In this document: one piece after another, positions 13,583 to 41,339 of the stretch
Position numbering within the stretch: position 1 is the stretch's first letter
Layout of the letters: each line of letters begins with the position of its first letter
Assembly: GCF_963921235.1 (NCBI RefSeq)
Contig: NC_086097.1
Location: forward strand, 24,988,001 to 25,052,000
Direction of reading: 5' to 3'
Source: Mobula hypostoma
Lineage: Eukaryota
Length of the DNA: 64,000 nt
Notes under the pieces: model-generated
Seen by the model: only the letters and a program-made list of their open reading frames with translations
Told to the model about the DNA's origin: nothing
Databases searched by the model: none
Translations under genes and position numbers: made by a program

Positions 13583-14579
13583 CATGAGGATGCATGCCCA
13601 CCTCCCCACCTCCCCATCAAACTTTGTTTCAATCCTTTGTGGATTATAGGCTCCATCGGTAGGGGCATACAAGATGACAAAAGGGATAGATAGGGTGAAC
13701 AGCCAGAGAATTTTCCCAGGATAAAAATGGTTAATACAAAGGAGTATAATTTTAAAGTGACTGGAAGGAAGTATGGGGTGGGGTGGTTCTTTACACAGAG
13801 AGTGGTGGGTGCATAGAATGCCCTGTCAGGGATGGTGGTAGAGCAAATACATTAAGGATTTTTAAGAGACTGTTAGATGGGCATGTGGATGATAGAAAAC
13901 AAAAAGAGGGGTGGGTAGGAGCGAAAGGGTAGATTGATCTCGGAATGCGTTAAAAGTTTGGCACAACATCGCGTGTCGAAAGACTGATACTGTGCTGTAA
14001 TATTCTAAGCTCTATGATCTATGAAATTGGAGACAGGTTGATGGAAAGGGTACTTAGCACGTTGGCTTTCATCAGACAGGGCACTAATTATTGATGTTAG
14101 GATATTTTATTGTACAAGATGTAGGTAAAAGCGCACTCATCATCATCTTCAAAAGGCAATGCCTCAAAAAGCAGCATCCATCACTATGAACCCCCACCAC
14201 CAGGTCACGCCCTCCTCTCATCACTGCGAAGAGGTACGCGAGTCAGAAGACACACACTCAAAAGTTGAAGAACAAATTCTTCCCTTCCCTTCTGCCATCA
14301 GATTTCTGGATGGCCAATAAGCCCATGAGCTACCTTACTCTTTTTGCTTTCTTTTTACATTACTTACTTAATTTTATTCCCTTTTGTAATTTATAGTATA
14401 TTTTATGCATGGTTAGTATATTTTATGCATGGCACTGTACCGCTGCCAGAAAGTAACAAATGTCATGACATATGTCAATCAGAATAAGCATAATTCTAAT
14501 TCTGATTGGAGTATTGTGTTCAGCTTTGGTCATCCTGTCACAGGAACTGCACCATTAATCTGGAAAGAGTGCAAATAAG

Positions 14580-16385
14580 TGTACGGAGTCTCTTTTTTTT
14601 GTATGTTAAATTTAAAATGGCTTCTTTGTTATGTTAAATACTGAGAAAGTCTCTAGCCAGACATTTGCTTGGGTTAGTACAGACAGCAGGGTGCTATTAG
14701 CCAATGGGTGTTCGGGTATCATTTTGTTTTCAGATGATAATGCTGTCTCATATGACTGGGGACAGGGTTTTTGGGGGGAGTCGGAGGAGAGACAGGGAGG
14801 TCGGCGGACGGGGTTTTTGACGGGGAGTCGGAGGAGAGACGGGGAGGACGGTGGACGGGTTTTTGGGGGGAGTTGGAGGATAGACGGGGAGGACGGTGGA
14901 CGGGGCTTTTGGCGGGGAGTCGGAGGAGAAACGGGGAAGACGGTGGATGGGGTTTTTGGGGGGGAGTCGGAGAAGAGACGGGGAGGACGGCGGACGGGGT
15001 TTTTGGGGGGGAGTCGGAGGAGAGACGAGGAGGACGGTGGACAGGGTTTTTGGTGGGGAGTCGGAGGAGAGACGGGGAGGACGGTGGATGGGGTTTCTGG
15101 GGGTGAGTTGGAGGAGAGACGGGGAGGACGGCGGACGGGGTTTTTGGGGGGGAGTCGGAGGAGAGACGAGGAGGACGGTGGACAGGGTTTTTGGCGGGGA
15201 GTCGGAGGAGAGACGGGGAGGACGGTGGATGGGGTTTTGGGGGGGAGTCGGAGGAGAGACGGGAAGGACGGCGGACGGGGTTTTTGGGGGGAGTTGGAGG
15301 AGAGACAGGGAGGATGGCAGACGGGGTTTTTGGGGGGGAGTCGGAGGAGAGACAGGGAGTCGGAGGAGAGACGAGGAGGACAGTGGACGGGGTTTTGGGG
15401 GGAGTCGGAGGAGAGACGGAGAGGACAGTGGATGGGGTTTTTGACGGGGAGTCGGAGGAGAGACGGAGAGGACAGTGGATGGGGTTTTTGACGGGGAGTC
15501 GGAGGAGAAACGGGGAGTCAGAGGAGAGACGAGGAGGACGGTGGACAGGGTTTTGGGGGGAGTTGGAGGAGAGACAGAGAGGACGGTGGATGGGGTTTTG
15601 GGGGGAGTCGGAGTGGAGACTGGGAGTCGGAGGAGAGACAAGGAGTCGGGGGAGAGACGGGGAGACGGAGGAGAGACGGGGAGTCGGAGGAGAGACGGGG
15701 AGACGGAGGAGAGACGGGGAGTCAGTGGAGAGACGGGGAGTCGGAGGAGAGACGGGGAGTCGGGGGAGAGACGGGGAGACGGAGGAGAGACGGGGAGTCG
15801 GAGGAGAGACGGGGAGACGGAGGAGAGACGGGGAGTCAGTGGAGAGACGGGGAGTCGGAGGAGAGACGGGGAGTCGGGGGAGAGACGGGGAGTCGGGGAA
15901 GAGACGGGGAGTCGGAGGAGAGATGGGGAGACGGAGGAGATACGGGGAGTCGGTGGAGAGAGACGGGGAGTCGGTGGAGAGAGACGGGGAGTCGGTGGAG
16001 GGACGGGGAGGACGGCGGATGTGCGGAAAGGCTCCGGTTGATCACTTCAGGTGGTCCCGAGCTGTGAGTTGACAGGATCCAGGTGGTCGTCAGGAATCGA
16101 TTGGGCTCCAACGGTTGCACACGAAGAACTTGGACTTTGATAAGTCTGGCGCTTTTTTTTCCCCATTACTTCCTTCTCTGTATCGCACTGATATTAATTT
16201 CATAGACTTAGTAATATCTATAAAGTGTACTTGGTAAAACGTACTGTGTGTGCTGGCTGATGATTGATGCTTGTGATTGATTCAGGTGGCAGTGGTACAG
16301 CAACCAACCCAGCAGGAAGCGTTCAGGCCGGTGCTGGGCGGGATTTCCCCAAGGCATATACGAGCCAATATAGCTGAGTGTTACA
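14580..16385. mobile_element. Solo LTR (about 1.8 kb) inserted in a CR1 fragment
   Basis: TGTAC...TTACA ends with 4-bp TSD TAAG (14576-14579, 16386-16389). Removing it restores the CR1 peptide ERVQIRFMRTLPG. Confidence 0.75.
14758..16015. repeat. G/purine-rich VNTR inside the solo LTR
   Basis: About 45-bp units (GGGGAGTCGGAGGAGAGACGGGGAGGACGGTGGACGGGGTTTTT) give way to about 19-bp units (GGGGAGTCGGAGGAGAGAC). Confidence 0.95.
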
Positions 16386-17973
16386 TAAGATTCATGAGAA
16401 CGCTGCCAGGATTTGATGGCCTGAGTTACACAGAGAGGTTGGGAGGACTAGGACTGTAATCACTGAAACATGGGGCACTGAGAGGTGACCTTACAGAGGT
16501 GTATAAAATTACAAGGGTACAAATAGGGTAAATGCAGTCAATCCCATGAGAAAAGAACTGTCAGGAACCAAGGGAACTAATTCTTGGCCTGCCCAACTTC
16601 TTCCTATAGCTCAGGCACCGAAGTCCTGACAACATTCCCATAAGCAATCGACATTTCAGACTGATGAAGGGTACTGGCCCTAAACCTCAACCACTTATTC
16701 ATTTCCATAGATGCTGCCTGACCAGCTGAGTTCCTCCAACATTATTGCTCTGGATTTCCGGTATCTGCAGAAAATTGTGTGTTGAACATCTCACAATTCT
16801 GTTTTGCACTCCTCTCAGCTTAATGACATCTTTCCTATATCAGGGTTACCAAAATAGAATACAGCACTTCAGGTGAGGCCTCAAAAACGTCTTGTACAAC
16901 TGTGACATCATATCCCAAATCCCACACTCAATATCCTGAAAGATGAAGGTGAGAGTGCCAAATACCTTCTCAACCCTGCAAACACCAATCGTCAAGGAAA
17001 ACCTTTTCTACAAATGTGCCCTTTTCATGTTGCAATTGTGCCCATCTCTATCACCTCCTCAGGCAGTTCTTCCCAAATACTCCCACTGTCTTTACAAAAG
17101 CCTTGCCTCATACCTGGGATAGTATACAGAGACTCTCATCAGCTCCAGTGTTTTGGAAAAGACCTGGAGAATTCTCCCCAGTTCTCTCCGGCTTCTGAAC
17201 CATAGAAAGCATTGTTTCTGGATGCATCAGGACTTGCTATGGCAACGGCTCTGCCCGTGACTACAGGAAACTGCAGAGAGTTGTGGATGCAGCTCAGCAC
17301 ATCATAGGAACCAGCCTCCTCCTTAAGGACCCTGTCTGTAGTTCCCACTGCATCAGTAAAGCAGCCAGCATAATCGAAGATCCCACCCACCCCGGGCGTC
17401 CTTTCTTCTCCCCTCTCCCATTAGGCGGAAGATACAAAAGCCTGAAAGTACATCCCACCAGGTTCAAAGACTCCCGCTGTTATCAGACTCTGGAATGGAC
17501 GTCTTGGACGATAAGATGGACTCTTAACTTCACAACCTACCTCACGATGATCTTGCCCTTCATCATTTGTCTGCACCGCACATTTTTTGGTCGGTTTTAC
17601 ACTTTATTCTGCATTGTTATCCTTTTACCTCTCAGCACTGTGTAATGATTTGATCTGTATGAACAGTGGCAAGACCGGTTTTTCATTGTATCTTGGTACA
17701 TGTGACAATAATCACCAATACTTAACCCTCAATTACCCAACCACACAAAAACAAAGACAACTTATCGGATTATTCCCCCTTGTTAGAGCCTGTAGGATTT
17801 TGCTGTGTGCGAATTGGCTAATGACAACACTTTTAAAAAATGGTTCACTAACGCAGAACCACACTGAGAGATCCTGGGGATATTGCTACATACATTGACT
17901 TTCATTACATAAGGATCATGTAATGTTGCGTCATGAATTGATAGAGAGCACGGCAGGTGAGTTACAAGATCTT

Positions 17974-17979
17974 TTTATT
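17974..17979 (-). promoter_or_regulatory. Candidate polyadenylation signal of the DIO2-like gene
   Basis: AATAAA on the minus strand about 135 nt downstream of the SECIS. Confidence 0.6.
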
Positions 17980-18111
17980 ACAATGCCCATCAAAGTACAC
18001 TCGGCAATAGCACCACAAATCGATTTCATGCATATAAATATATAAACAAGTAAAACTAACTTCAGCCAGTCAACGTATTTCACTCAGAGTGGGAGAACTG
18101 AGGGCAGGGAT

Positions 18112-18182
18112 GGGCTTCTTTCTCTTCCAACAACTGACAGAGTGGTGAACTCATTCTTCAGTCGCCTTCATTCTGTGAGCCC
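18112..18182 (-). promoter_or_regulatory. SECIS element (form 2) in the 3'UTR of the DIO2-like gene
   Basis: Minus strand: GGGCT CACAGA ATGA A GGCGACTGA AG AA T GAGT TCACC ACTC TG TCAGTTGTT GGAA GAGAAAGA AGCCC. AUGA/GA quartet, 9-bp helix II (GGCGACUGA:UCAGUUGUU), unpaired AA 12 nt after AUGA, apical minihelix GAGU/ACUC, helix I GGGCU/AGCCC. Confidence 0.88.
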
Positions 18183-19586
18183 GGCTCCAGCCCACAGCCC
18201 CCTCCACTCATGCTTAAACCAAACAGAACGTGTGCAACTCAGTAACTTAAAAGAGAGGCTCACCTTAGACATGAACCTGCAGATGGGGGCAACGTACAGC
18301 AATAAAAGAGAAACTTAAGACACTGGTGAGGTGGGAACATTTTGCACCTCATGAAAAGAATACATTTACCACATTAAAAACTAAAATAGGGAATGCAATG
18401 ATGTTCAAAACCTGTGTCAGGTTTATTATATAATTAAGTCTATGTTCAGAACAAAAATATTGACATTCAGCTCAACTTGTTCTGGTATTTTCCACTTTCA
18501 AAGCAATCTTCTGTGAGATTATTTGGAAATAGTTTCGTCTGACTTGCATTAAATTTTATTGATGCATGGTTCAGTATCAGCTGAGGACAGTTATACAAAG
18601 GCTGATTATCTAACGCCCAGAGAAAGGGTCTCGACCCGAAACAGCAATTGTCCATTTCCCTTCACAGAATCTGCCTGATCCACTGAGCTCCTCCTGTATC
18701 TGTGTGTGTGACTTCCGTGACCCCATTCCTTCAACACCCACCCCCAGCCCAGGAGGGGAGCTGCCTTCTTGGACTGCCACAGTCTCTTTGGTGACGATGC
18801 TCTCATGTTGCTGATGGTGGGGAAGGAATGGAGTGAAGAGGGGTAGGGGGGAGCTCCAGGAATTAGAGACCCAGCAATGTATTTCCAAATCAGGATGGTG
18901 GGCAACTCTTAGGGAGAGGGGTGTCAGTGAAGCCTGGAGATGGAAAGCTGCAGAGGGCTGACTTCTCAGCCAGCTCCCTCACAGGCCTGTTATCATGCTG
19001 TGGCTCTAAATAAAACAGGCACAATGCTCCCCACAATCGAGGACATCTCCAAACGATGCAATGCCTCAAGAAAGCTGCATCCATCATTGAGGACGTCACC
19101 TCCCAGCACACGCCCTTGTCTCATTGCAACCGTCAGAGAGGAGGTGCAGGAGCCCCGACATTTGAGGAATGGCTTTCTCCCCTCTGCTATCATATTTTGA
19201 AACAGTCAAAATCACTTATTATCACTGATGTATCTTGAAATTGGCTGTTTTGCAGCAGAAGTATAGTGCAAGACATTTAAAAAGTTACAATGGAAATATA
19301 TTTTTAAAAAATCAATAATGCTTGCAAAAACAGAGCAAAAGAGTGAGATAGCATGCAAGAGCCCACGAACCCACTATTCTGCTCTCTTTTCACATTTCAT
19401 TTATATTTAATATTTTTTATTGTAACGTAGTTTTTTTTTAAGCGTTGCACTGTACTGCCACAAAGCAACAAATGTCATGACAGATGACAGTGATTTTTAT
19501 TCTGATTCAGATTCCTTCCTTTCCCCCCTCTGTACGGCCAGCTGCCCTTGGCATCACCACCCACCCCTCCACCCCTCCCTCCCTCC

Positions 19587-20339
19587 TTACTGCTTGTCCC
19601 CTCGGCGCCGCTCCAGCCAGCTCCTAACCCCAGCCAGGCTGTAGTAAAGGGGTCCCATCCCTCCGAGGTGTGCCACCCTGCCATCCTGCACAACGCAGAA
19701 GCGCTCAAAGGCCACGCCGTAGGCCTGGCTGGCCCCATCCTCCATGGAGTCAGCCACCACCCGGCACCAGGGGTCCAGCCGGAAATGGCGCAGGAGGAGG
19801 GAGGCGGCTGCGAGGCGCTCGGCCAGTGACCGGTGTCGCGGCAGCTGGAAGGGCGAGGAGGCAGCCCAGCCGTCGGAGGGGTGGGCCTCCCCAATGTAGA
19901 CCACCAGGAAGTCCGCCGCTCCGGCGTACTCCTCGGCCAGCCGGCAGAAGTCGGGCAGGGTGCCCACGAAGGGGGGTCACGTGGCCGAGCCGAAGTTGAC
20001 CACCAGTGGGCGGCCCGGACTGGCCAGGTCCAGCAGCCGGCAGCAGGACCCCCCGCCCTCCGTGCCCACCTGCACCACTCGCGAGTTGGGGGCTGCTCCG
20101 CCCTGCTTCACCTGCTTGCGTGCATCCAGCTGGAAACAGTGCCAAACCGAGCGCAGGCCCGGCAGGGTCAGCATCCTCTGGCCCCCGGCCCGGCCTGAAG
20201 ACAGGCCAAAGCCACTCAGCAGGCCCACTACCTGCTTAATGAGCTGCACTGAGTCATAGGCGGCCAGGAACAGGCAGTTGGAGAAGAACCCGGGCAGGAT
20301 CTGCAGGCCGATCAAGAGGTCCACACTTAACAAGCCCAT
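19587..20339 (-). CDS. dio2: Type II iodothyronine deiodinase-like selenoprotein, 250 aa, single coding exon, Sec121 encoded by TGA at 19979-19977
   Basis: ORFs 19977-20339 and 19587-19967 are in one frame, joined by TGA-CCC-CCC-TTC. N-terminal TM segment MGLLSVDLLIGLQILPGFFSNCLFLAAYDS; active centre RPLVVNFGSAT-U-PPF (Ala at -2 as in DIO2); DFLVVYIGEAHPSDGW; YGVAFER. Kozak ACCATGG, TAA stop, SECIS downstream. Orthologue versus paralogue is unresolved. Confidence 0.95.
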
Positions 20340-20444
20340 GGTGTTGCTCCACGGAGATTAGCCGGCTTGCCTCAAAGTTTTTGTGGAAGTTGCTCTCTCC
20401 CTCTCTCTTCCACTCTCTCCGGTCTCCTCCAGCTCTTCTCCACT

Positions 20445-20465
20445 CTACTCGTTCATCCACTCCAT
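20445..20465 (-). promoter_or_regulatory. Upstream ORF (MEWMNE*) in the putative 5'UTR
   Basis: ATG GAG TGG ATG AAC GAG TAG holds the only ATGs I found between the TATA box and the main start. Confidence 0.6.
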
Positions 20466-20807
20466 GAGTCAGGATAGCGAGACGAATCCACCTTCCTGAA
20501 TCCCCTCTGTCTCCTGAAGCCACGCTCTCCCAAAGCTGCTGTGTTGCTCGAATCCACTTTCTCCCTCCCTCTCGAAGGCGCTCTTTCTCGCTTGAATCTG
20601 CGCGCTCTCTTGATTCGACGCTCTCTCTGCCTCTGACCAATGGAGATGCAGGCAAGGGGAGGGAAGGAGGACTGAGGCAGGTCCTACCAACCCCCTGCAG
20701 AGGTTTAACCCGGCCAACTTCGGTCTCACGTGCACTCGCCGGCCCTCCCAGTCACAGCTCTGTTGTCACTCGCTGTGGCTCTGCACCGACAGCAGGTTGA
20801 GCCGACC

Positions 20808-20897
20808 TTATATACCCAGCTGCTGCCAATTACTGTGACTCCACAGAGCAGGGCTAATCTCTACTGAAGATTGTGACGTAGGTGGCTGGCTGAGTCA
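20808..20897 (-). promoter_or_regulatory. Proximal promoter: TATA box (20808-20814), CRE-like site (20874-20881), AP-1 site (20891-20897)
   Basis: Minus strand has TGACTCA ... CTACGTCA ... TATATAA. CRE-to-TATA spacing of about 60 nt matches the known DIO2 layout (CRE near -90). TSS inferred near 20783. Confidence 0.7.
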
Positions 20898-23652
20898 GGA
20901 AAGTTTGCCCAGTGCTGGAAAAAAGAGCCCGTGCTTTGTAAAACAAACAGATTATGCTGTTGCTCCCCAGACTGAGTTGATGCAGCATTTTGCGCTAGGA
21001 AGCGGTAAAAATAGGCTGGGAATCAGCTTTATTATCGCTGACATATGTGGTGATATTTGTTCCTCTGTGGCAGCTGTACAGTCGCAATGGATAAAGTATC
21101 TGATAACTACAACAAAAATTAAGTACTGCAAAGATAGTAAGATAATGTTGATGAGTTCTTGGACTATTTGGAAGGAGGAGAAGCTGGGTGGTGGCTGTCC
21201 TAAATGGTGAATGCTGCCTTTTTGAGGATGTTTGTCCTCAATGCTGGAGAGGGTAGTGTCCCCATGATGGAGCTGGCTGAGTTTACAACCCTCTGTAGCT
21301 TTTTCCATTCTTTTCCCGCAGCAGTACAGCGCAAAGACATAAAATTATTGTAAGTTACTAAATAAATAAATAGTGCAGAAAGAAAGGAATAACAAGGTAG
21401 TGCCCATGGACCATTCAGAAACCTGATAACAGAGGGGAAAAAAGCTGTTCCTGAATCGCAGTGGTGTGTTGGTCTTCAGGCTCCTGGGCTGCCTCTGTGG
21501 TGATACTAACGAGAAGAGGGCATGTGTGGGGGTCTTTAGTGATGGATGATATCTTCTCGAAGCACTGCCTCGATAGTCAGGAGGACTAGTGGCCATGATG
21601 GAATCTACAACTCCAGTAGCCTCTTGTGATGTGATCCTGGGCACTGTGAGACTATACACCAGGCAGCGATGCATCCACTCAGAACTCCCTCCACTGTTCA
21701 TTGGTAGAAATCAAACCTTGTTGAAATACCAAGGATTCACGGATCAATTTAAATCTCAATTTTGCATTTCTATAGCCCCACTTGGGATGTGACATCCCAC
21801 TCCAGCTGGCCTGCAGACACTGGCTGGAATGCAGAGGCACCAGTCACACAAGCCCACACAAACAGCTACACAGTCCTGACTTGTAGCATAGAACGTAACA
21901 GTTCAGTACAGGTGCTTCAGCTGCAATGCTGTGCCAAACTTTTAACCTGCTTTAGTATCAATCTAACCTTCCTTCCTACAAAGCCCTCCATTTTTTCTAT
22001 AATCCATGTGCCTGTTATTTAAGAGATTCTAAAATGCCCCTAATATATCTGACTCTTCCACCACACCTGGCAGGGCATTCCACAGGCCCACCACAAAAAC
22101 CTACTTCTGACATCTCCCCTTTACTTTCCTCCAATCACCTTAAAATTATGCCACCCTGGGAAAATGCCTCTAGCTGCCCAGTCAATCTATTTTTTGCACT
22201 ACCTTACTTTCCATTTTTCTATTTTCTATTTATGATTTATGATTTAAATTTTTATATTTACTAATTTTTACTATTTTTAATATTTAATATTTGTAATCCA
22301 GGGAGTGGGAAGCGCAGAATCAAATATTGCTGTGATGATTGTAGGTTCTAGTACCAACTGTTTGGTGACAATAAAGTATAAAGTATAGAAGTATGTCTCT
22401 TATCATCTTGTACACCTCTATTGTCAGCTCTTATCCTCCTTTGCTGTAGCTTGCTCAGCCTATCCTCATTAGACATGCTCTCTAATCCAGGTGTTAGCAT
22501 GATGCTATTGCAATTCCAGGTGTTCCGTAGTTCGGAATTCAATTCCAGTGCCATTCTGTGAGGAATCTCTGTACGTCCTCCCCATGGAATGCATGCATTT
22601 TCCCTGGGCGCTCCCGTTTCCTCCCACAGTCCAAAGCCATACTAGGTAGGTTAACTGGTCATTGTGAAGATTTTAGCATTTTCACATAAGCAACACTTCG
22701 GCCCAGGGGAAAGGAGGAGTTCCAAGACATACACGCAGAAGTTATTAAGCCCCGGTGATATATTTTCAAATCAGGGTGTCGTTAAACTTGGAAGGGAGTC
22801 AAGAGTAGGTGGATTTCCCTAGTGTCTGCTGCCTTTGTCCTTCTTGCTGGTGAAGGCCATAGATTTGGTAAGTCCTGTGGGAGTAATCCAGACTAGTAAA
22901 TGCCAATTCTGTTGATGCACGCAGTATTGTGAGGAGGGGCCTCAATGTACAGGATCAGAAAGAGCTGCTGTAAACTCAGCCAGCCCCATCATGGACACTA
23001 ACCTCCGTACCATCGAGGACATCTTCAAATATGATGCCTTAAAAAGGCAAAATCCTTTATTAAGGACCCCCATCACTCAGGATGCCCTCTTACCATTAGG
23101 GAGGGGGGACAGGACAAAGAAGACACCCATTCAATGTTTTAAGAACAGCTTCTTCCCCTCTGCCATCAGATTTCTGGAAGGATCACAAACCCATGAACAT
23201 GACCTCACTAATATTGCTCCCTTTTGGCACTACTTAATTATTTTTATATAAATTTCTTATCGTGATTTGTAGTATATTTAATGTATTGCACTATATATAT
23301 TATCGCTGACATATGTCATGAAATTTTGCAGCAAAACAATGAATTTCACAACACACAGTACATCAGCTGGTAATAAACCTGACTCTGAACGGGACATGTC
23401 TGGCATCTGACATCCACTATGGCCATTGTGTAAGCTTAGAATCGCTGCATATGCAAGACCACCAGCAAGGGCACTCGATCTCCATCTCACCAAGAGCACC
23501 CAAATTCTGAGAAATCAGTTATTTTTCAAAGTTCAAAGTAAATTTATTATCAAAGTACGCATACAATATACATATACTGCCCTTAGATTAGCTTTCTTGC
23601 AGGCATTCAAGGTAGAAAAAAGTAGAACAATAGATTCAATGAAAACCTGCGT

Positions 23653-39731: not shown

Positions 39732-41339
39732 CAGTGGCTATAAAAAGTATTCCTTTCATCCCTCTCTGGAAGTTTTCACGTTTTATTGTTTCACAACATT
39801 GAATCAGAGTAAATTTAATTTGACACTGATCAACAGAAAATAGTTTTTGTGTCAAAGTGAAAACAAATTTCTACAAGCCAGTCTAAATTTATTACAATTA
39901 TTAAACACAAAATAATTGATTGCATAATTACTCACCTCCTTCAAGTCAGTATTTAGTAGATGCACCTTTGGCAGCAATTACAGCTGTGTGGTTATGTCTT
40001 TATCAGCTTTGGACATCTGGACACTGCAATTTTTTCCCATTCTTCCTTACAAACTACTCAAGCTCTGTCAGATTGCATGGGGATCGTGAGTGAACAGCTC
40101 TTTTCAAGTCTAACCACAAATTCTCAATGGGATTGAGGTCTGGACTCTGACTTGGCCACTCCAGGATATTAACTTTGTTGTTTTTAAGCCATTCCTGTGT
40201 AGCTTTGGCTTTATGCTTGGGGCCATTGTATTGTTGGAAAAGAAATCTTCTCCCAAGTTGTAGTTTTCTTGCAGACTGCATCAGGTTTTCCCCAGGATTT
40301 CCCTGTACTTTGCTGCATTCATTTTACCCTCTACCTTCACAACCCTTCCAGGACCTGCTGCAGTGAAACAACCCCACAGCATGATGCAGCCACCACCGTG
40401 CTTGACCATAGTGATAGTGTATTTTTGATAATGTATGGTGTTCAGCTTATGCCATACATAGCGTTTAGACTGATAGACAAAACGCTCAATTTTGGTTTCA
40501 TCAGACCCTAAAACCTTCTTCCAGCTGACTTCAGTGTCTCTCACATGCCTTCTTGCAAACTCTAGCCAAGATTTCATTGAAGATTTTCTCAACAGTAGCT
40601 TTCTCTTCATCACTGTCCCATAAAGCTGTGACTGGTGAAGCACCCGGGCAACAGTTTTTATATGGGCAGTTTCTCCCAAGTCAGCCACTGAAGCTTGTAA
40701 CTCCTCCAGAGTTGTCATAGGTCTCTTGGTGGCCTCCTTCAATAGTCCCCTTCCTGCACAATCACTCAGCTTTTGAGGACAGCCTGCTCTAGACAGATTT
40801 ACAGCTGTGCCATATTCTTTCCATTTCTTGATGATTGACTTAACTGTACTCCAAGGGATATTCAGTGACAGAAATTTTATTGTATCTATCTCCTGACTTG
40901 TACGTTTTAATAACCTGTTTTACAGAGATGCTTTTATCTTCATGGTGTAGTTTTGACAAGGATACTGACTCACCAGCAGTTGGACCTTCCAGATACAGGT
41001 GTATTTTTACTACAGTCAATGGAAGCACCTTGCCTGTACACAGGTGATCTCCATTTAACTAATTATGTGACTACTAAGACCAATTGGTTGCACCAGTGAT
41101 GATTTGGTGTGTTATACTAAAGGGGGTGAATACTCATGCAATCAATTATTTTGTGTTTTATATTTGTAATTAATTTACATCACTTTGTAGATATCCGTTT
41201 TCACTTTGACACAAGAGAGTCTTTTTCTGTTGATCAGGGTCAAAAAGAGCCAAATTAAATCCACTGTGATTCATTGTTGTAAAACAATAAAACATGAAAA
41301 CTTCTGGGGGAGGGGGGCAAATACTTTTCATAGGCACTG
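39732..41339 (-). mobile_element. Full-length Tc1 DNA transposon with long TIRs; transposase is a pseudogene (about 40943-39946)
   Basis: TA-CAGTG...CACTG-TA ends with about 200-bp imperfect TIRs. Motifs [30 protein letters not shown] (catalytic D replaced by Y) and [11 protein letters not shown]. Frameshifted. Confidence 0.93.

Follow-up and report, generated by a model that had tools for sequence, protein, structure and literature searches.

The closest described relatives of the gene considered here are the type II iodothyronine deiodinase gene (DIO2) of other vertebrates, its sister gene DIO3 and, with respect to gene structure, SEPHS2b, an intronless selenoprotein gene that replaced its multi-exon parent in placental mammals (PMC3316567, accessible sections). 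As stated in the same sections, all detected Dio3 genes are intronless and the remaining vertebrate selenoprotein genes are multi-exon with the exception of SPS2b (PMC3316567). The stretch of DNA analysed, hereafter the window, comprises 64 kb (C1:24,988,001-25,052,000; positions without a contig name are counted within it) of a 3.48-Gb assembly and harbours, at C1:25.008 Mb on the reverse strand, a DIO2 gene that lacks a coding intron, is unusually rich in GC and evolves fast. We consider it highly probable that this gene is the single DIO2 orthologue of a cartilaginous-fish genome, possessing its own TATA promoter, giving rise to an unspliced mRNA of ~2.8 kb and encoding a selenoenzyme with a form 2 selenocysteine insertion sequence (SECIS).

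In common with vertebrate DIO2 (PDB 9H48), the gene product belongs to the same Pfam family and possesses the SAT-U-PPF active site (U, selenocysteine), an N-terminal membrane segment and the EAHPSDGW, HR and FER motifs, and the gene has a 5' untranslated region (UTR) bearing an upstream open reading frame (uORF), a candidate SECIS near its 3' end, synteny with TSHR and GTF2A1, and DIO3 on the same chromosome. On the other hand, the intron between AYKQ and VK is missing, the 3'UTR measures 1.6 kb, the loop ahead of the active site is shorter, the GC content at third codon positions (GC3) reaches 0.84, and G replaces D in YIDEAH as M replaces K or R in GGKGP; also the second, C-terminal UGA of mammalian DIO2, described in the part of PMC3316567 that is available, is absent. 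DIO3 equally possesses a single coding exon and a selenocysteine (Sec) codon and is located on the same contig 18.8 Mb away, but is only 42% identical, with SCT-U in place of SAT-U, another N-terminus, a clade of its own (SH-aLRT, the Shimodaira-Hasegawa-like approximate likelihood ratio test, 100) and a SECIS detectable by Rfam. SEPHS2b is likewise a functional intronless selenoprotein gene in one lineage whose relatives have introns, but was retroposed to a new locus (PMC3316567, in part), whereas the DIO2 gene described here is still found at the original locus together with its promoter. The salmonid DIO2b and the lamprey DIO2c are, according to the accessible portion of PMC13134290, DIO2-type selenoproteins divergent from canonical DIO2 as well, but exist alongside the canonical gene, while only one DIO2-like locus is present in this assembly.

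A DIO2 reading frame without the coding intron

The coding region is defined by the following features.
19587..20339, reverse strand: single-exon DIO2 coding sequence (CDS) of 753 nt, 250 amino acids plus TAA, start context ACCATGG
19977..19979, reverse strand: in-frame TGA, Sec codon 121 in GSAT-U-PPF, assigned by frame translation and structure alignment
20111..20112, reverse strand: position of the bony-vertebrate DIO2 coding intron (between Q76 and V77), contiguous in this genome

A preliminary description of this DNA had reported a 753-nt frame with an in-frame TGA in SAT-U-PPF and a DIO2-type protein, and both statements hold. The frame of 250 codons is open throughout when the TGA at 19979-19977 counts as a residue, and this codon aligns with the active-site position of the structures 9h48 (DIO2) and 4tr3 (DIO3), which is Cys in the crystallised constructs. 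The protein matches the Pfam family T4_deiodinase (PF00837) with an E-value of 5.1e-81 and 271.9 bits (cut-off 27) over profile positions 1-236 of 237. The catalytic motifs FGSATUPPF, EAHPSDGW, HR and FER are all conserved, and the Sec codon together with EAHPSDGW, HR and ER characterises the protein as a member of the deiodinase family. With respect to the subfamily, a PDB search scores the type II deiodinase 9h48 at 192.6 bits versus 161.4 bits for the type III enzyme 4tr3, which agrees with the placement in the DIO2 clade reported below. The SAT-U signature, with Ala two residues ahead of Sec, is present in GSATUPPF, where the DIO3 of the same genome reads GSCT-U-PPF, and those full-length homologues among the matches listed that bear source names are all DIO2 or unspecified iodothyronine deiodinases of 43-58% identity. 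By all signs of its sequence the gene would be a functional DIO2, with predicted deiodinase activity and predicted Sec insertion at UGA 121.

The Q76 and V77 codons (20112/20111) are adjacent and the frame runs unbroken over the site, so that the contiguous AAG CAG/GTG AAG junction pointed out previously is confirmed in the genome sequence. The intron of other vertebrates can be placed between AYKQ and VK because all five exon-1-only open reading frames (ORFs) of bony-vertebrate type that were inspected (P0172, P0174, P0190, P0296 and P0300) leave the DIO2 alignment directly after AYKQV. The single coding intron at this site, a feature of bony-vertebrate DIO2, is therefore not found here; it is a trait of gene structure and no criterion of orthology. 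Intronless DIO2 is not mentioned in the accessible text of a survey of nine cartilaginous fishes (PMC13134290; 2026), the graphical intron marks of which may already show the intronless state, and a literature search yielded no statement on DIO2 gene structure in cartilaginous fishes.

The junction can be followed beyond the assembly in contigs of four public sequencing runs, which were aligned to positions 16100-22500 of the window and of which the run type 'RNA?' is a guessed label. Run X1 (organism A) provides two contigs, 17958-19558 and 19591-20775, without any difference to the genome and separated by a 32-nt hole in a G-rich stretch directly 3' of the stop codon. Run X2 (organism B, ~2% diverged) provides contigs 18106-19567 (31 differences, 1 gap) and 19597-20775 (23 differences, no gaps). 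As in both runs the depth is 0-1.3 in the unique bins on either side (16956-17169 and 20808-21021) versus 62-800 within the gene, X1 and X2 behave as RNA. Run X7 (organism F, more diverged) behaves as DNA, since its depth is even, ~8-19, within and outside the gene; one of its contigs covers 19470-20425 and thereby the entire CDS with 44 differences and 16 gap letters. From these contigs it follows that DIO2 is transcribed as an unspliced mRNA of ~2.8 kb, from 20775 to 17958, in two organisms. Neither the genome nor the transcript contigs of two organisms nor the DNA-like contig of the third organism interrupt the junction, so that at least this small group of related organisms shares the intronless structure.

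One locus in canonical synteny

A protein search of the assembly yielded six matches at four loci (10 of 10 candidates scored), and a Pfam profile search eight matches at the same four loci (14 of 14 candidates scored). Besides the gene described here, they comprise a DIO3-like gene with one exon at C1:43.81 Mb, at a distance of 18.8 Mb on the same contig, and two DIO1-like copies with several exons on contig C50; neither search found a second DIO2-like locus in the 3.48 Gb. The two DIO1-like copies (44,778,388-44,783,179 and 44,824,406-44,829,302; L003-L006) are separated by 46 kb and encoded on one strand; each comprises three exon matches with an in-frame TGA, the scores of the two are nearly equal, and they represent either a recent tandem duplication or a duplicate of the assembly. 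A DIO1 duplication in cartilaginous fishes is not mentioned in the sections of PMC13134290 that are available.

The neighbourhood of the gene was assessed against the human arrangement, in which the last TSHR exon lies tail-to-tail with GTF2A1, and from which the location of TSHR was predicted. Exons of a TFIIA/GTF2A1-like gene are located at C1:25,912,522-25,941,706 on the reverse strand, 0.90 Mb from DIO2, with another copy on contig C22. In the 100 kb beside this gene, 0.88 Mb from DIO2, a 475-amino-acid ORF with a 7tm_1 domain is encoded on the forward strand (C1:25,883,175-25,884,599), which scores 629.9 bits with the thyrotropin receptor, 511.2 with LHCGR and 499.7 with FSHR in a search against the PDB, and which is identified on this basis as the last exon of TSHR. 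A search of the genome for TSHR with PF12369 (GnHR_trans) returned no match anywhere, controls included, and is therefore uninformative. The order DIO2 (reverse), TSHR (forward) and GTF2A1-like (reverse), followed at greater distance by DIO3 on the same chromosome, corresponds to the canonical arrangement.

In a tree of 43 rows the protein is placed inside the DIO2 clade (21 rows, SH-aLRT 98). Within this clade, the protein, the N-terminal halves of Chiloscyllium and Scyliorhinus DIO2 and three Logan halves form a subgroup of six rows (SH-aLRT 92), which forms the sister group of 15 bony-vertebrate rows (SH-aLRT 88); the DIO2 clade as a whole has DIO3 as its sister (SH-aLRT 94). The rows comprise the protein itself, 13 of 120 listed homologues, seven half-length rows, the DIO3 and one DIO1 exon of the same genome, the rows P0210-P0235 of at least 190 amino acids except P0212, P0218 and P0221, and in addition P0232 and P0091; the tree stems from a quick search without bootstraps, with several rows of half length and several long-branched rows poorly placed. 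As a separate observation, P0312, a strongly diverged DIO2-like sequence (N-terminal half, 132 amino acids) that ends in NFGSAS and runs across the AYKQ/VK position, may originate from a jawless vertebrate.

The protein is 61-62% identical to the two shark N-terminal halves (Chiloscyllium and Scyliorhinus) and 69-71% to two further halves. The shark-type rows share with it the sequence ASPGRP ahead of the active site and a four-residue gap after GWAA, and their branches in the tree are longer than those of bony vertebrates. As claimed before, the gene is very GC-rich and divergent from mammalian DIO2: the CDS has a GC content of 0.676 (0.69, 0.49 and 0.841 at the three codon positions) against 0.441 for the whole window, and its GC3 compares with 0.77 in the TSHR exon, 0.60 in the DIO3 gene and 0.39 in a DIO1 exon of the same genome. 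Gly, Ala, Arg and Pro account for 35% of the residues. The high GC content along with many replacements by these residues would be in line with GC-biased evolution as predicted by GC-biased gene conversion, which, if strong, may have altered the properties of the enzyme by replacing residues adjacent to its substrate pocket, namely K or R by M in GGKGP and D by G in YIDEAH.

Untranslated regions and the SECIS candidate

The regulatory and untranslated parts of the gene are arranged as follows.
20776..20897, reverse strand: candidate core promoter from a motif scan, with TATATAA at 20814-20808, an inverted CCAAT (ATTGG) from 20830, a cAMP response element (CRE)-like half site ACGTCA at 20879-20874 and an AP-1-like TGACTCA at 20897-20891
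20340..20775, reverse strand: unspliced 5'UTR of 436 nt, GC 0.569, covered by X1 and X2 contigs that align end to end
20445..20465, reverse strand: uORF of six codons (MEWMNE) plus stop, starting at 20465, with a nested ATG at 20456
17958..19586, reverse strand: 3'UTR of 1629 nt, GC 0.441, with the X1 contig 17958-19558 at 0 differences
18100..18195, reverse strand: candidate form 2 SECIS, with AUGA at 18171-18168, a 9-bp helix II (18166-18158 paired with 18137-18129), an AGAAU internal loop, a 4-bp mini-stem, GA at 18127-18126 and an outer helix I
17974..17979, reverse strand: poly(A) signal AATAAA, with the transcript end near 17958, ~16 nt beyond

The promoter, uORF and poly(A) signal announced in the preliminary description can thus be located at 20814-20808 (TATATAA), 20465 and 17979-17974. 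X1 and X2 have upstream contigs with the same end, 20775, which is ~33-39 nt downstream of TATATAA, and the TATA, CCAAT, CRE-like and AP-1-like motifs are predicted to act as promoter elements. At the other end of the transcript the X1 contig terminates at 17958 with 25 extra letters which do not match the genome and probably represent the poly(A) tail. Part of the 3'UTR (bins ~18454-19523) is repeat-derived, with an X7 depth of 200-1400 versus ~8 in unique parts; by eye, in predicted folds, the stretch near 19030-19140 resembles 14140-14260.

The SECIS, which had been proposed without coordinates, was sought with a pattern consisting of NTGA, one base, a helix II strand of 8-14 nt, AA, an apical part, the pairing strand and NGAN. 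One site, 18171-18126, is found in the 3'UTR, and it is the only ATGA site of such quality on both strands of the window (128 kb); with GTGA also allowed, it is one of three sites scoring at least 9.5 in the 128 kb, which corresponds to an expectation of ~0.04 sites per 1.63 kb. The unconstrained fold, in which minimum free energy structure and centroid coincide, displays helix I, a 10x10 internal loop with AUGA and GA, and the 9-bp helix II, followed in the apical part by the AGAAU loop with AA 13-14 nt after AUGA, the 4-bp mini-stem and a 5-nt loop (-32.5 kcal/mol, z -1.67). The hairpin thus exhibits the features of a form 2 SECIS, namely an AUGA...AA...GA core, a helix II of ~9-12 bp, a mini-stem, an internal loop and helix I. 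It is situated in the non-repeat part of the 3'UTR, ~170-210 nt ahead of the poly(A) site and 1808 nt past the UGA, and among the 24 of 31 differences listed for the X2 3'UTR contig one (18174) affects the 5' internal loop, whereas the quartet and helix II contain none of the 24. The site 18171-18126 is probably the SECIS of the DIO2 gene.

For comparison, the Rfam model SECIS_1 (RF00031) detects the SECIS of the DIO3 gene of the same genome, with 28.3 bits and an E-value of 0.047, under the gathering score of 35 bits.
L017 6068-6134 = C1:43,808,068-43,808,134, reverse strand: SECIS of the DIO3-like gene with GUGA instead of AUGA, a few hundred nt 3' of the CDS, identified with Rfam SECIS_1
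Genome-wide the model gave six matches, none of them on C1 near the DIO2 gene (130 of 59,395 first-look candidates scored).

In the resulting model the DIO2 gene would be transcribed from its own TATA promoter, unspliced, from 20775 to 17958, and the mRNA would most likely be translated into a thioredoxin-fold selenoenzyme anchored in the endoplasmic reticulum, which would remove the outer-ring iodine of thyroxine (T4) to yield triiodothyronine (T3). The UGA codon 121 would be read as Sec with the aid of the form 2 SECIS hairpin, which is located 1.8 kb further 3' and close to the 3'UTR end. DIO2 mRNAs have known uORFs, and by analogy the short uORF probably dampens translation.

Several observations weigh against this model. 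The RNA nature of the runs labelled 'RNA?' was assigned by guess only. The SECIS fold is modestly better than shuffled sequences, with 11 of 200 shuffles folding at least equally well, and Rfam SECIS_1 does not match the candidate in 8 kb, 7.7 kb or 181 nt at E-values of up to 10. Also, the pattern scanner scores the DIO3 SECIS at only 6.5 (second in its locus), a value reached by 27 sites in 128 kb, and at its strict setting finds nothing downstream of the DIO3 and DIO1 genes of the genome and thus lacks a clean positive control; with the DIO3 SECIS at 6.5 and nothing below DIO1, the scanner is specific but insensitive. With respect to the protein, several residues that the other aligned DIO2 rows conserve are altered only here (YIDEAH to YIGEAH, MDNNAN to MEDGAS, GGKGP/GGRGP to GGMGP and GPFFY to GPLYY), substitutions which could mean relaxed constraint, and the loop ahead of the active site is ~10 residues shorter than in the solved DIO2.

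Origin of the intronless gene and its surroundings

The missing intron has two possible explanations: it was lost precisely from the gene at its original location, recombination with a cDNA being one conceivable mechanism, or the intronless structure is ancestral for DIO2. The preliminary description had proposed precise intron loss in the true DIO2, of which the true DIO2 without coding intron stands; as for the loss, a gain of the intron in bony vertebrates could explain the difference instead. If DIO2 never possessed the intron in this lineage, the common ancestor of DIO2 and DIO3 was intronless, cartilaginous fishes retained this condition and the intron was gained on the bony-vertebrate stem, a scenario which we regard as a serious possibility, held tentatively. 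The sister gene DIO3 has one exon in this genome and is, following the accessible sections of PMC3316567, intronless throughout, and exon 1 of the DIO1-like copies covers profile positions 3-118 without an intron at the DIO2 position. As DIO1 lacks an intron at this position and DIO3 lacks introns altogether, a gain on the bony-vertebrate stem is at least equally parsimonious; with DIO1 and DIO3 as outgroups, one such gain implies a smaller number of events than a gain with subsequent loss, provided that other cartilaginous fishes and cyclostomes are also without the intron. All four shark-type N-terminal rows (P0124, P0128, P0131 and P0171) cross the junction and no shark-type ORF stopping there is found among the 195 N-terminal rows screened; however, the four rows are maybe spliced models or transcripts, from which the gene structure is uncertain. 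Furthermore, precise intron loss is commoner than intron gain in vertebrates, which speaks for the loss.

It is unlikely that the gene is a processed retrocopy that took the place of its parent, comparable to SEPHS2b in placental mammals, or a retropseudogene in decay. Such an origin would account for the lack of introns and for the substitutions at conserved residues, and intronless selenoprotein matches are usually pseudogenes, as stated in the accessible part of PMC13134290. The gene, though, is located at its canonical locus beside TSHR and the GTF2A1-like gene, in the same orientation relative to both as in human, and no parent copy is present in the assembly. It possesses its own TATA and CCAAT motifs upstream of the transcript start, and the genome shows no A-run beyond the poly(A) site at 17958. 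The frame is intact with Sec codon and SECIS candidate, transcript contigs are found in two organisms, and the coding region of X2 is free of gaps. A processed retrogene or retropseudogene is disfavoured by the canonical locus, the upstream promoter motifs, the lack of a genomic poly(A) tail and the lack of a parent.

An additional DIO2 (duplicate or ohnologue) beside the canonical gene, which the preliminary description had put in its headline and which the 50-58% identity to bony-vertebrate DIO2 and the odd gene structure might suggest, is very improbable and in fact refuted by the sole DIO2-like locus, the canonical neighbours with DIO3 on the same contig, and a tree in which the protein groups with shark DIO2 and which matches the species tree within DIO2, all the more as the Chiloscyllium and Scyliorhinus N-terminal halves are about equally divergent from bony-vertebrate DIO2; the second, intron-containing DIO2 to be looked for is absent from the assembly and the synteny is canonical, two of the three findings that the description itself had named as refuting its proposal. 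The gene is thus best regarded as the DIO2 orthologue at its original locus.

With respect to the surroundings, a G-rich minisatellite occupies 14760-16010 of the window, 2-3 kb past the DIO2 poly(A) site (GC ~0.65, GC skew ~0.7; units of 47 nt in 15.9 copies and of 19 nt in 21.3 copies), in which several frames are open on both strands without a Pfam match. The rest of the window consists of transposon debris, at 1384-1899, 26.5-30 kb, 40284-40919, 47-48 kb and 54-57.7 kb. Pfam analysis of the 100 largest of the 228 ORFs of at least 75 amino acids in the window identified fragments of long interspersed nuclear element (LINE) reverse transcriptase and endonuclease, the helix-turn-helix domain of Tc1/mariner-type transposases and RNase H of long terminal repeat (LTR) type, and among these 100 ORFs no neighbouring host gene was found.

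For annotation, the locus represents a complete, expressed selenoprotein gene of a kind that pipelines tend to truncate at the UGA, as foreseen in the preliminary description and as seen in the shark database entries P0128 and P0131, which end at GSAT. With respect to evolution, the lineage no longer needs to be credited with an additional deiodinase, and DIO2 can be a single-exon gene at its original locus. Should the intronless state be ancestral, DIO2 would provide one of the rare vertebrate intron gains that can be dated. In addition, the divergence of this key activator of thyroid hormone under the influence of GC would constitute a useful case for the effects of biased gene conversion on an essential enzyme.

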